Assembly (NCBI RefSeq): GCF_046119375.1
Contig: NW_027362763.1
Coordinates: forward strand, 141,856,001 to 141,920,000
Direction of reading: 5' to 3'
Length of the DNA: 64,000 nt
Source: Phyllobates terribilis
Taxonomy: Eukaryota
How positions within the stretch are numbered: position 1 is the stretch's first letter; each line of letters starts with the position of its first letter. Under the pieces are notes generated by a model. It saw only the letters and a program-made list of their open reading frames with translations, did no database searches and was not told the DNA's origin. A program made the position numbers and the translations under genes. Below, one piece after another: positions 52,101 to 58,100 of the stretch.

Positions 52101-55100
52101 AGATCCCGGGGCGACCTCCGGGGAAGAGGTGTGAGACGCAGGGAGCATCTTGGAGTCTGGAGAGCTGGAGGATGAGCTTGCGTGGATCCGTTTCTGAGAA
52201 CGTGCCGTCAGTCTGCCCCTGTGAGGAGGGGGCAGGGGTGCCTGCGAATCGTCTGTGGAGACGTTCGGAGCACTGGTGGCCGTGGATAACATAGGCAAAC
52301 GTTCTGACAAGTGTTCTAAGACCTGCACCAGAGATTGAGAAACCTTGGTGAGGTCAGAGACAGACTGTGACATAGCAACAGCCCACTCCGGAGGGGAGGG
52401 GGTTACCACGTCCTGAGCGGCAGGGGGGTCTTGGGGTGCCAGCATGGCGGGAGGTTTGCAGGTCGAGCAGAAGGCCGTAGTGAGACCCGCGGGCCACTTA
52501 GTACTGCAAAGAGCACAGGCGTAGTATGTGACAATGTGAGAGGGACGGACTGAGGGCTCCCTGGGTTTGGGCATATGTGCCTGACCAGGGATACTGCAGA
52601 GGGGAGATCTGTGAGCAGGGAGGGATGGGGGGCTTGTGTCAGGACAGAGCCTACCCGATTCTGCAGAGAAGCGGTCCCGTGTCCCCCTGAAGGCTCCGAA
52701 AGTGAAATTGGAGCTGGTCACAGTAGGTGCCGTAGGAATAGGGAGCTGCGTGCGGCAGAGCGATGGCGCCGGTGCAGAGGACGCTCGTTGATGATGGAGC
52801 GCGCGAGGCTCCGATAGGAAGATGGGAAGGGGGGCGGGCTTGAGAGGCCCCCCGATGATAGGTCCGCGGAAAGGCACGAGGGCGTGACGGAAGCGTCACT
52901 ATGCCCCTCGGTCCTGATTGGTCAGATAGGAGGGGGCGTATGGGCGTCGGAGTAGGACCGTCCACAGGACACGCCCCCCGTCAGAGAAAAAGTGCGGCAG
53001 ATTTGCCGCGCGTAAGGGAAAAGGAGGAGGAAGTGGCCCAGGGAAGCGCTGTTAAGTGCAGTGTTGGGGGGGGGGGGGGACCGGGGGGGCTGGTACCTGC
53101 AGCTGGAAAGGCAGTAGTGAGTCCGGTAATCGTCCGTTCCTTCACCTCCTGAGGATGGTCTCAGGATGCCTTCCTGGATAGGAGGGGATCCTGGCTTTTC
53201 CTCCTGGACAGTGCAGGAGACGGTGTCAACCCCAGACAACTGGGGGGGAAGGTCACCTGCAGGGACCACCGTCTCCCTCCCAGGACGCTCCAAGGAGGGG
53301 GCTGGGGTGGGAAACAGGCTAGGACTGGCCACCGAGATCGCCCTGAGACACCCTAAGGTGACAGGGGATAAGTCCTGGAGACAACCAGCAGACCCACAGC
53401 CCCCCTAAAAAATAACTTTTATTAATAATCTCTAAAAAGGACCTAAAAGTCCATAGACAAACAACAAGAATACTCTAAATGATAGGACATATAGAATCAG
53501 GTAATACACCGACCGGGAGGGAATACAAATTAAAGCTGTCCCTGTTATGTCCCTAAATCCTGTCCCTACCTGACAGCGGAGGTTGGCACCCTAATTTGTA
53601 CTTCGTGGCGCCCCCGCTCAACGTCGGTATCCCTAATGTCCCTACAAGGACCCTTGTCTTAAATTAAAAAAAAACACAATAGTGAGAAAGGGTAGAAAAA
53701 GTGAACGTATAAGTACAGAAGCCGATAATAAGTCAATGATTATAGATGGCCAAATTCATTTGGTCGGGTAAACATAAATGCTCTAGGGTAGAGGAGCACA
53801 GTGCTTGTTTTTCCATAGCCAAATCAAATCAAATAGCAGCCAGAGCAGTCAAATATGAACACATGCTCCACTTTGATAATCCAGCTATATACCTCAAAGG
53901 GGGCTCCAAAAACAGAATCCCACCCAGGTAAATGTCTCCCCATACATCAAATGGGATTTAAGTATTGGTATTTGAAAAAGCATAATATCTATATCAGAGT
54001 ATCGGGTCCAAACTCTATCTGTCATAGATGTACATAATAGTAGACAGAAAGAAAGACACTTATCATTATTAGTCCCTATACCTTTTCAAATAACTAGAAA
54101 GTAGTAATCAGAATATAAATATCCATTAGTAAGTAAACAATAGCACTTAGCCTTGATGGTCCCTAGTCCCAAAAGTCAAATAATAGATTATCGAAAGAGA
54201 GACACTCATCATTGTTAGTCCCTATTCAAAAGACTAGAAAATGGCAATCAGAATATACATTTTCATTAATAAATAAACAGTAACACTAAACCTAAATGGT
54301 CCCCAATTCCAGCAGGTCAGAAAGTAGATATCATTAATAAGTAAAAAAATGACACTTATCCTTAGTAGTCCCTAAGTAGACACTTATCCTTAGTAGTCCC
54401 TAAGTAGACTACTAAGGATAAGTGTCATTTTTTTACTTATTAATGATATCTACTTTCTGACCTGCTGGAATTGGGGACCATTTAGGTTTAGTGTTACTGT
54501 TTATTTATTAATGAAAATGTATATTCTGATTGCCATTTTCTAGTCTTTTGAATAGGGACTAACAATGATGAGTGTCTCTCTTTCGATAATCTATTATTTG
54601 ACTTTTGGGACTAGGGACCATCAAGGCTAAGTGCTATTGTTTACTTACTAATGGATATTTATATTCTGATTACTACTTTCTAGTTATTTGAAAAGGTATA
54701 GGGACTAATAATGATAAGTGTCTTTCTTTCTGTCTACTATTATGTACATCTATGACAGATAGAGTTTGGACCCGATACTCTGATATAGATATTATGCTTT
54801 TTCAAATACCAATACTTAAATCCCATTTGATGTATGGGGAGACATTTACCTGGGTGGGATTCTGTTTTTGGAGCCCCCTTTGAGGTATATAGCTGGATTA
54901 TCAAAGTGGAGCATGTGTTCATATTTGACTGCTCTGGCTGCTATTTGATTTGATTTGGCTATGGAAAAACAAGCACTGTGCTCCTCTACCCTAGAGCATT
55001 TATGTTTACCCGACCAAATGAATTTGGCCATCTATAATCATTGACTTATTATCGGCTTCTGTACTTATACGTTCACTTTTTCTACCCTTTCTCACTATTG

Positions 55101-58100
55101 TGTTTTTTTTTAATTTAAGACAAGGGTCCTTGTAGGGACATTAGGGATACCGACGTTGAGCGGGGGCGCCACGAAGTACAAATTAGGGTGCCAACCTCCG
55201 CTGTCAGGTAGGGACAGGATTTAGGGACATAACAGGGACAGCTTTAATTTGTATTCCCTCCCGGTCGGTGTATTACCTGATTCTATATGTCCTATCATTT
55301 AGAGTATTATTGTTGTTTGTCTATGGACTTTTAGGTCCTTTTTAGAGATTATTAATAAAAGTTATTTTTTAGGGGGGCTGTGGGTCTGCTGGTTGTCTCT
55401 ATTTATTAGGCCCCTCATGTGATATTTTGTCTAGGTGTTTAATTTAGGGGATAAGTCCTGCCCAGCGGGTCCGAGAGTGGGCGATGTGGGGGTAGCCACA
55501 TTGCTCTCTCGGTCGCTTGTGGGTTAACAGGGTACGCAGTGTTCCTTGTTAGCCTGAAGAGCTGTATCTGAAAGAGAAAAAACAAACATTAATAAAACAC
55601 AACAGGGTTGCATCTGATAGGATCCAGTCTACCTCCTACAGACACTAAGCTTAAACTGGTGAGCTTGATGCCTGTAGGAGGGTGCATACTGCAGAGGAGG
55701 AGCTATTTTTCTTTTTCTGCCTAGTGTCAACCTCCTAGCGACAGCAGCATACACCCATGGTCCTGTGTCCCCCAATGAAGCGATAGAGAAAAAACATTTC
55801 TGGCGTTTTTTTTTTTTTTTTCTTGTTACACCGCTTTACTGATTGGATTAATTTACTTTATATTTTGATGGATCAGACATTTTATGAATGCAGCGATACC
55901 AAATATATGTATTTTTTTTAAATTGTTTTATTTTTAATGGGGCAAAAAGAGGGGTGAATTGAACTATTGTGGGTTTTTTTTTCCATTTTATTTAATAGTC
56001 CCATTAGGGGACTTGAAGCTGCGGTCGACCGATCGCTTTCGCTATACATAGCAGGGCTTCAGCAGTGGCCATGGGCTGGCGTTCACAGGAGGATCATGAT
56101 AGGCACAGGGGTCTTCTGCAGACCCCCGGCTGTCATGACAACCGATAGGCGCTCCAATGGGACGCACTTCCAGCCGGCGCGTGTTAAATATTGCTGTCAG
56201 TGATTGACAGCTACATTTAACTTAAGAGCCACAGCTGTTAGAGGCACTTGATGGCTGATTAACTCAGCAGTCATGTGCTGGGAAAGATGCGGGTTAAGGC
56301 AGGGACATGGCCAATGACGTAAGTATACGTCATTGGTCGTGAAAGGGTTGAAAAAGCATTCGGGAGTACATAAATTATTACCCCAAAAATATGATGAGGT
56401 CACATTAGAAGGTCCCGGGCTCCTGATCGCCAGAATCAGAAGACTTCTGTCTCCACTCTCACCCCTGGACGCAAGCAAAATAAATAAAGCAGCTAGTGAG
56501 CACGCAGGCGGCCATGCCATCCTAAGACTATGGCACTAAATATACGAAATGAGCAGAGGGCAGTGCTGGACTCCATTGTCTGCCAGTGCCAATGACTTGG
56601 GAGTAATGTAGCAAGGTGCTGGGAAGAGCCTGGCCACAACTGCGAGGGTCTGAGCCGACAGATATTACCGATCCAGTGGATGTGTTATCATTTATAGGAA
56701 AAATAAATCACTCCACTCAAGCGTCACAAGGCCTAGCATGAAAACAGAGCCCCATGGTTTCCGGTGTCCCCCAATGAAGCGATAGAGAAACAGAGTCCTA
56801 CAGTTCAAAAGCAAAGTGCAGCAAGAAGCTCAGGTGCCCAGTCACAGACACGCAGAAATACTAAAAAGCAGAGTCAGCGCTCTGAGGAGGAGACTGTGGA
56901 AGGATAAATATAGAAGCTAATAGATAAAAGATAGTAAAGGTAAACGTCTGTAAGTAGATCACAATAAATGCAGTCAGAACATGTGACCATATGAGTAGTA
57001 CTCGAAAAGACAGAGGAGAGTCAATTATACTGGGGCCAGAGTCAATATTAACCTGAAAATTGGGTTAGTGGTAGTGATGAGCGAACGTGCTTGGATAAGG
57101 GGTTAACCGAGCACGCTCGGGTGCTTACCGAGTATCTTCGGCATGCTCGTATATTATGTTGGAGTCCCTGTGTCTGCATGAGTTATGGCTGTTAGTCAGC
57201 CTCAACACATGAAGGCATTGCCTTTTTGTTAGGGAATCCTCACGTGTTGAGACTGTCTAACAGCCGCAAATTATGCAGAAGCAGGGACTTGAAGAGAATA
57301 TATGAGCACGCTGAAGATACTCGGCAAGCCACGTGAGCGTGCTCTGTTAAAAGTGAGTCTCTTTCTTAATAGTGACAAATGTCCAATTGAGAGTCCATCC
57401 AATTCCCCATAAGGAGGGGGCATCTACTATCCTTCACTAGTCCTTGACTAAGGAAAGCAGAGTTGGAGGCTTTGTGGACTATGGAGACACCAGTACTGGC
57501 GTTTACAGTCACCTCATATTCCACTGACGACACTCCACCAGCAAAACTTTCAGGTGCTGCTAGCTCCGGCCCCAATTGAATTGACACCCTTTTTTCTTTT
57601 CGGTACTATACTCATACGGTTGCATGTTCTGATTTACTTACAGATTTTCACCCTTACTATCAGCATCTCTGTGTATCCTTACGCAGCCTTGTCCTCCGAC
57701 GCTTTTTTGTATTCATGTTGTAATTTATGTCAACCAGAAAACTCCTTTAAGGGCTCACGCACATGAGCACGATATACAACGAGATTGGATCCTATCCTAC
57801 TAAATCAGGAGAGATTCTTTTTTGATGTCTCAGACAGGATCAGGTCATGTTCTTGGCTCTAAAAATTCAGTTCATTCAAGCCTGGGACAGATGAATTAAT
57901 GATCGGCAACATGATCTCTTGTGTGTTCAGCTGCAGTCATATTTTAAGACTATAAACAATGAGAATTGGTGGTTACTTTTCTAACAAGTGTGTGTCATCC
58001 ACCGCGATAGTCATCCAAATCTTTTCGATTATAGTATGACAGCAATTCCCATAGCTACAACACATAGAAAAAAATTGCTGAATGTAGGACCTTATCTAAC

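Follow-up and report, generated by a model that had tools for sequence, protein, structure and literature searches.

The window analysed here, a 64,000-nt stretch of the Phyllobates terribilis genome, carries minus-strand coding exons of CPSF3, which were placed using short peptide motifs that we take to be those of this gene; a later exon gave a Pfam match to Beta-Casp. Intron 4 (46916..58131, minus strand; the fourth counted from the ATG exon, with GT/AG ends read from the sequence) contains DIRS copy 2 (47797..55793, minus strand), which has an RT/RNase H ORF at 48440-51118 and a gag-like ORF at 51216-52895. Between its 5′ repeat and the gag-like ORF, that is, in the 5′ leader, sits a 2-kb palindromic insertion, at the place given by the original prediction from the bare sequence.

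The insertion is bounded by two copies of a 15-bp target-site duplication (TSD), at 53363..53377 and 55446..55460. The same 15-mer of DIRS leader sequence occurs once, at 39376-39390, in DIRS copy 1, an empty site with continuous flanks. From left to right, the insert comprises a tail-less arm (53378..54372, minus strand), 34 nt of junction filler (54373..54406), the paired part of a tailed arm (54407..55399, plus strand) and a tail (55400..55445, plus strand) found on that arm only. The mirrored parts of the arms (53378-54370 and 54407-55399) are 993 nt each and align without gaps, with a single mismatch (53468/55309). Contigs from all four public sequencing runs have T at 53468, so the G in the assembly is either private or an error of the consensus. 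Element sequence continues in the left arm for two bases beyond its mirror end (54370), to 54372, which leaves the 34 nt of non-element filler: two copies of one 6-nt linker flanking a further antisense copy of the terminal 22 nt. This filler forms part of an exact 28-bp tandem at the apex (54351-54406) and is unique in the genome, and a 17-mer from the apex has two matches genome-wide, both at this locus. The TSD, the mirror arms, the apex tandem, the unpaired 46-bp tail on the right arm alone and an AATAAA in the arm (at 55354, with a mirror copy at 53418) had all been predicted correctly, as had an internal periodicity of about 150 bp, measured here at about 146 bp (75% identity), with units of the tailed arm beginning at 54407, 54555 and 54701. 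The idea that these units are decayed hammerhead duplicates proved weak (198 and 28 of 2,000 shuffles scored equally) and serves as a lead only. A search of 53000-56000 against Rfam returned only hairpin-type miRNA models, below gathering score.

The parent of the arms encodes a reverse transcriptase (RT) and a GIY-YIG endonuclease and is thus a Penelope-like element (PLE), which supports the predicted recent, target-primed Penelope-like retro-insertion with an inverted partial copy and a tail; the parent family itself, and the hammerhead cut that sets arm length, had been overlooked. The family comprises at least 189 pLTR segments in the 10.6-Gb genome. We numbered the element by a natural copy (L049:4292-9403), in which Pfam matches to RVT_1 (E = 7.7e-5) and GIY-YIG (E = 2.3e-4) both fell narrowly under curated cut-offs. 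By eye, the 849-aa translations of L033, L046 and L049 have a CX2-5CxxC linker before the endonuclease, a DKG motif and two cysteines between GIY and YIG, which the available text of PMC8557442 gives as Neptune features. By these predicted protein features the parent is a Neptune-type PLE (RT, CxxC linker, GIY-YIG), with a linker motif common to Neptune and Nematis. Its coding region consists of two overlapping frames (238 and 849 aa), which a candidate GT-AG intron at reference 640-866, read from DNA, would join into 990 aa, and its pLTRs are partially tandem in eight copies (L033, L038, L049, L053, L056, L067, L068 and L069). A PDB sequence search with the parent ORF gave no meaningful match, and no RNA run was listed as carrying sequence. 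In reference coordinates, the tail-less arm at the CPSF3 locus extends from 4069 (the predicted hammerhead cut) to 5067 (an internal start site), the tailed arm begins at 4071, 2 nt past the predicted cut, and the tail is identified as the last 45-46 nt of the element (5068-5112).

The two-armed layout is the norm in this family, in answer to the suggested check on whether other copies share it. Among 35 two-ended insertions, TSDs of 14-17 bp flank 31, with lengths of 15 nt in 19, 16 in 9, 14 in 2 and 17 in 1. Exactly one end is tailed in 34 of the 35, and two tailed ends were seen in none. Private variants are common to both arms of one insertion, a pattern equally compatible with a single RNA, two RNAs of the same locus, fold-back and subsequent gene conversion. 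A comparison of 36 arm pairs gave no clear pair of mixed subfamilies, and an apparent case in L059 turned out to be a BLAST split. L017 and L100 differ only slightly more from their partner than from other copies.

The parent is predicted from its sequence to carry a minimal type I hammerhead, with a 4-bp helix I, a 7-bp helix II and a palindromic helix III/loop, whose core and helices are conserved across PLE copies. The predicted cut product begins at reference 4069, and the palindrome arms end at 4069 and 4071; that both stop at the predicted cut accounts for their equal length at this locus. The claim that the insert lacks an ORF or ribozyme thus holds in that 53301-55500 contains no CTGANGA, but it missed that in the parent the hammerhead core lies directly upstream of both arm ends, adjoining the insert on its outside. 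Three of 116 other arms end at reference 4066-4072, against 0.29 expected (P = 0.003); one of these (L113) is a 39-nt fragment in a degenerate context, and without it the count is 2 against 0.29 (P ~0.035, by hand). A genome-wide search for the exact site placed 2 of 187 ends at the cut, against 0.05 expected (P = 0.0013), L131 being new and L089 being counted in both tests. The search had 11 pattern matches, of which six belong to a subfamily that keeps an intact hammerhead and has a 7-mer in duplicate, and three to the palindrome locus. L123 was dropped as a cut-site end, as it reflects a later 4.8-kb insertion beyond which the element resumes. Rfam found no hammerhead in the parent's 3′ region, the minimum-energy fold of the hammerhead region differs from the active fold, and the copies are too alike for covariation support. 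The number of cut-site ends is small, and the arm ends are indirect support for ribozyme activity, which stays a prediction.

A second landmark lies further upstream, where 19 of 116 arms end at reference 3968-3990 (0.85 expected), about 30 nt past a TATA-like box. An extra G is found at 8 of 11 of the furthest start-site ends, compared with 13 of 62 other ends, a pattern that capped RNA ends should give. When an arm ends at a landmark (start site or cut), a longer partner was found in none of the 14 seen (none of 22 in all), compared with 36 of 45 otherwise (conservative P = 2e-5; P = 0.004 with double-counted pairs halved). The absence of longer partners suggests that one RNA, or one RNA class, templates both arms.

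We consider twin priming on an element RNA whose 5′ end was made by hammerhead self-cleavage to be probably the best explanation of the palindrome. The RT-GIY-YIG protein, probably as a dimer, would nick both target strands 15 nt apart, and each 3′-OH would prime cDNA on element RNA, with one start at the end of the tail and the other 45 nt further in. Both cDNAs would run to the RNA 5′ end, here generated by the hammerhead; if they stopped there, the arms would be equal and would lack the ribozyme core. A short snap-back, microhomology and a slip of 28 nt may then have linked the cDNA 3′ ends. Probably a single RNA molecule gave rise to both arms, or failing that a single RNA class of one source locus.

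The original prediction instead invoked a fold-back or template switch during cDNA synthesis. In its fold-back form, a single cDNA turns back at its 3′ end and copies itself into the whole second arm, a model related to a self-priming proposal in the available text of PMC3846280. We regard this as unlikely, even though the arms at the CPSF3 locus are equal and nearly identical, private variants are common to both arms, and a few insertions have near-equal ends away from landmarks (for example, L087, 3651/3650). A tail-less strand offers no template for a tail, nor a shorter arm for a longer one, and among 29 simple insertions the longer arm is tail-less in 15 and tailed in 12, with equal arms in 2, which counts against whole-arm fold-back as a general mechanism; the fixed tail-less end at about 5067 is also left unexplained. 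Local snap-back over a short stretch is nonetheless seen at the apex: at the CPSF3 locus (4 nt) and in L121 and L131 (14-20 nt), the run-off end is followed by bases copied from the cDNA's own last stretch, but in L121 and L131 this piece is short and is followed by a jump to a separate partner arm. Thus, a staggered cut whose two nicks each prime a cDNA is a better fit than whole-arm fold-back, which is disfavoured across the family and could still hold at the CPSF3 locus.

Equally improbable, in our view, is twin priming in which the ends were set by a minor start site, by chance or by stalling of the RT at the helix II hairpin, or in which the arms come from two separate RNAs. Few arms stop at the cut, a stable hairpin starts about 10 nt upstream of it, and the available text of PMC11167929 describes the hammerhead as dispensable in vitro, with no RNA-seq reads ending at its cut. 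Against this, three clear arms elsewhere and the left arm of the palindrome end on the exact predicted nucleotide, and ends in reference 3991-4062 are at background (3 versus 2.9). Cut-site ends also lack the extra-G pattern (1 of 3, too few to weigh much).

Palindromes are a recognised assembly hazard, and contigs of the four runs compared with 53250-54480 contain the family and the empty DIRS site, with the apex and left junction unbridged among the pieces listed, but an assembly fold-back artefact or a foldback (long-TIR) DNA transposon is very improbable: only one arm has a tail, the 15-bp TSD is exact when set beside the empty site, 34 further loci share the layout, and relatives encode RT and GIY-YIG, rather than a DDE transposase, between their arms. 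A non-autonomous palindromic element or retrozyme was also rejected, as the apex 17-mer occurs at one locus only and the insert lacks the hammerhead core. The CPSF3 palindrome is a young, non-coding insertion product of a PLE, one of many in its family.

Inverted PLE copies with tails are already published. Our literature search found no report of PLE twin priming or of PLE copies that break off at the hammerhead cut; S2 of PMC11167929 may bear on this. The formation of inverted copies and tails, and the in vivo role of the hammerhead, are called open in the available text of PMC8557442, PMC7761336 and PMC11167929. Tentatively, and with slightly less than even confidence, we propose that PLE integration is obligately two-ended, with a dimer copying a single RNA twice from starts 45 nt apart across a 15-nt stagger, and with hammerhead-cleaved RNA as a germ-line template. 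If so, insertions would record RNA 5′ ends (capped start and ribozyme cut) and provide in vivo evidence for the ribozyme. The CPSF3 insertion is valuable as a clean record of mechanism. The family offers predictions that can be counted: the stagger should stay at 15 nt, each insertion should have one tail, the 5′ end of a common RNA should limit both arms, and a few ends should fall at the ribozyme cut. Any genome assembled from long reads that has young PLEs would allow these checks, as would the in vitro system already available. CPSF3 pre-mRNA would contain a predicted 993-bp near-perfect stem with one mismatch; such dsRNA and cruciform consequences would follow from sequence and be common to many other two-armed copies.

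In L1 twin priming, both target nicks prime cDNA, and the head-to-head product has a TSD and junction microhomology or filler, as here. The two L1 cDNAs cover different parts of the RNA, whereas both PLE cDNAs would begin at the 3′ end, and their complete overlap would produce a palindrome. Neptune-clade EN+ PLEs, in the available text of PMC8557442, share with this family the order RT, CX2-5CxxC linker, GIY-YIG, as well as partial-tandem pLTRs with a hammerhead and inverted 5′-truncated copies tailed at one end; tails are 42-46 nt here, compared with 30-40 nt there, the pLTR here is about 1.14 kb, and two overlapping frames would be joined by one candidate intron. Penelope insertions of Adineta vaga (PMC3846280, available text) likewise have head-to-head inverted pLTRs, a TSD, a tail and palindromes at the inverted junction, but their TSDs are 8-10 bp rather than about 15, and self-priming on an antisense template is favoured there, whereas arm lengths here favour two primings. 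Poseidon PAc in vitro (PMC11167929, available text) cuts and extends both strands from two adjacent RT starts that bound the tail, and a dimer is predicted. Start-site use there shows no strand difference, a result from which a single tail per insertion would not follow on its own, and the two starts are not tied to two arms; here one tail per insertion is nearly obligate. That text gives no role or RNA trace of hammerhead cleavage, whereas some arms here end at the predicted cut. The predicted hammerhead resembles the minimal PLE hammerheads of PMC4209133, as far as its available text describes them, in its short helix I, 7-bp helix II, extra nucleotide 5′ of stem II and palindromic helix III, which suits dimers.

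The palindrome at window positions 53363..55460 consists of two 993-nt arms that align without gaps and with a single mismatch in the window self-comparison, a 46-nt tail on one side only and a 15-bp duplication bordering it on both sides. It lies in the 5' leader of the second of two DIRS retrotransposons (copy 2) and in the fourth intron of CPSF3, minus strand, the exons of which we take to lie where peptide motifs place them. DIRS copy 1 carries the 15-mer once, with unbroken flanks, so the duplication is a true target-site duplication (TSD). The insertion is young: its arms differ at 1/993 sites, its TSD copies match exactly, and the closest other family copy is 99.4% like the arm. 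Layout, host site and recency are thus as originally predicted. The two DIRS copies (34004-39725 and 47797-55793) are 83-96% alike and lie on the CPSF3 strand in different introns; copy 2 retains an 892-aa RT/RNase H frame.

Searching the 10.6-Gb genome with one arm gave 45 matches at 96-100% from 40 scored of 1,367 candidates, and the genome contains 189 exact instances of a 22-mer from the inner arm end. Across 20 fetched loci, the arm corresponds to the last 1 kb, on the 3' side, of an element 5.1 kb long, in which a 238-aa frame and an 849-aa RT frame are accompanied by a 3' region of 1.9 kb. Pfam detected RT and GIY-YIG domains, both a little below curated cut-offs, and a CxxC linker, cysteines within the GIY-YIG motif and a DKG motif are all visible, in agreement with the Neptune/Nematis description in the accessible text of PMC8557442. 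On these domains and motifs, we assign the palindrome as an insertion of a Neptune-type Penelope-like element (PLE). One natural copy, L049:4292-9403, serves as the coordinate reference. A candidate GT-AG intron at reference 640-866, still present in the genomic copies read, would on removal fuse the two frames into 990 aa. Some element copies (L073-L075 at G000:C1:597.99-598.01 Mb, with a period of 6.8 kb, and L078/L079) have multiplied inside larger tandem or segmental duplications.

The layout of the palindrome is the norm for its family. Both outer ends could be seen in 35 insertions, counted after removal of 3 identical duplicates; in these, the longest shared flank was 15 nt in 19, 16 in 9, 14 in 2, 17 in 1 and ≤12 in 4. 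Exactly one end carried a tail in 34/35, none had two tails, and the tail-less end fell at reference 5060-5080 in 27. Other copies therefore do share inverted arms and TSDs (mostly 14-17 nt), as the original prediction had asked. A second near-symmetric palindrome, L059 (G000:C2:300105170-300107690), has a 15-bp TSD and arms that both end at a candidate start site (3976/3978).

Arm ends were scored in a window-independent set of 116 arms, 23 of which run past the fetched sequence (drawn from the first 100 of the 189 22-mer sites in genome order, 44 second-anchor sites and earlier loci), against a background truncation rate of 39 events per 106,412 arm-bases. Nineteen of the 116 ended at the candidate start site (reference 3968-3990; 0.85 expected), in a cluster with a sharp upstream edge ~30 nt past a TATA-like box at 3941. 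An extra G preceded the end in 8/11 of the furthest-reaching start-site arms versus 13/62 other ends (P = 0.018 for all 19 against the rest), as expected when reverse transcription copies a cap. Clustering, position relative to the box and extra G therefore indicate that arm ends in this family record RNA 5' ends. When an arm ended at a landmark, either this site or a predicted ribozyme cut, its partner passed the start site in 0/14 cases with a partner seen (8 more had none seen); for arms passing the start site, 36/45 seen partners passed too (P = 2e-5 with unseen and cut-off cases counted against, 0.004 with double-counted pairs halved). L057 and L065 have arms stopping between the landmarks by ordinary truncation, and long partners. 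Arms within an insertion resemble each other about as much as, or more than, the nearest other copy (L058, 0.3% versus 3.4% difference). Boundary and likeness fit one RNA copied twice, and also fit two RNAs that share a class and a source locus; gene conversion could underlie the likeness within an insertion.

Were a single cDNA to fold back and make the entire second arm, the tail-less arm would be nested inside the tailed one. Yet in 29 simple two-arm insertions (hand-entered, complex tandem cases omitted) 15 had the longer reach in the tail-less arm, 12 had it in the tailed arm and 2 had equal arms, which argues against whole-arm fold-back. Junctions between arms are 1-10 nt overlaps or short templated fillers. 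These lengths and junctions would be accounted for by two primings, in which a cut staggered by 15 nt would leave two nicks, each priming one cDNA, and both cDNAs would then be joined at their 3' ends. An assembly artefact is unlikely because the palindrome matches the family-wide layout; public contigs are neutral.

In the parent, the inner arm ends lie directly downstream of a predicted minimal type I hammerhead. Its core is conserved, helix I has 4 bp, helix II has 7 bp and is closed by a GNRA loop, and the 6-nt helix III/loop is self-complementary; the motif matches that of PLEs in the accessible text of PMC4209133. An Rfam scan detected no hammerhead in the parent, and the free-energy fold differs from the active fold. 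The predicted 3' cleavage product begins at reference 4069 and the window arms end at 4069 and 4071; their equal length would reflect that both end at the predicted cut. In the 116 arms, 3 ends fell at 4066-4072 versus 0.29 expected (P = 0.003), one of them (L113) an ambiguous 39-nt fragment; a fourth candidate, L123, was dropped as a later insertion. A genome-wide pattern search returned 8 matches: 2 fall in the window, 4 belong to a subfamily whose ribozyme is intact, and the other 2 are true ends lying precisely on the predicted nucleotide (L089, already counted, and the new L131), giving 2/187 exact-site ends versus 0.05 expected (P = 0.0013). The effect comprises few cases, but its position is exact. 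The in vivo role of PLE ribozymes is termed a mystery in the accessible text of PMC7761336. The later insertion at L123 (G000:C7:183662000-183669500), an element 4.8 kb long and accompanied by a short duplication, sits 3-6 nt past the predicted cut of one copy. Units of ~146 bp in L049 (reference 4069, 4224 and 4370) each open with the 7-mer that also opens the ribozyme's 3' product and follow faint hammerhead-like remnants; the third unit head is the start of two partial copies (the L049 5' repeat and L041).

A genome search found the apex 17-mer at the palindrome locus only, which makes the palindrome the product of one event rather than a mobile unit. In L121, in L131 and at the window locus, the cut-site cDNA end is followed by bases copying the cDNA's own last stretch (4 nt in the window, 14-20 nt in the others) and then by the partner; a short snap-back at the apex is therefore likely, and to this local extent the fold-back originally predicted stands. 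The 28-nt duplication may tentatively be put down to slippage during or after joining.

Other repeats also populate the window. Two copies of a 1.6-kb element (6194-7812 and 22461-24097), in opposite orientation and 95% alike, carry terminal inverted repeats of ~275 bp, end in Tc1-like sequence beside TA, and are presumably Tc1/mariner-type DNA transposons. Older imperfect short palindromes, 69-82% self-complementary (7933-8321, 32324-32700, 46424-46671, 57103-57350 and 58760-59054), are likely MITE-type elements. Minisatellite arrays occupy 12662-13304 (period 43), 15557-16475 (period 21/41/62), 17403-21009 (period 44) and 40378-42032 (period 31).

The structure of the palindrome is already known: inverted PLE copies with tails and TSDs are described in the accessible portions of PMC3846280 and PMC8557442. 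Our results add a TSD fixed at 15 nt, the restriction to one tail, an RNA boundary shared by the arms and the ends at the predicted ribozyme cut, features for which we found no published report in a search of the openly accessible main-text literature. The rotifer TSDs in those portions are shorter (8-10 bp) than the mostly 15-16 nt of the frog family. According to the accessible text of PMC11167929, a Poseidon protein, a predicted dimer, cuts and extends both strands in vitro and starts at two adjacent RNA sites bounding the tail. Because that text reports no difference in start site between strands, the near-obligate single tail of the frog family represents a constraint beyond the Poseidon in vitro data.
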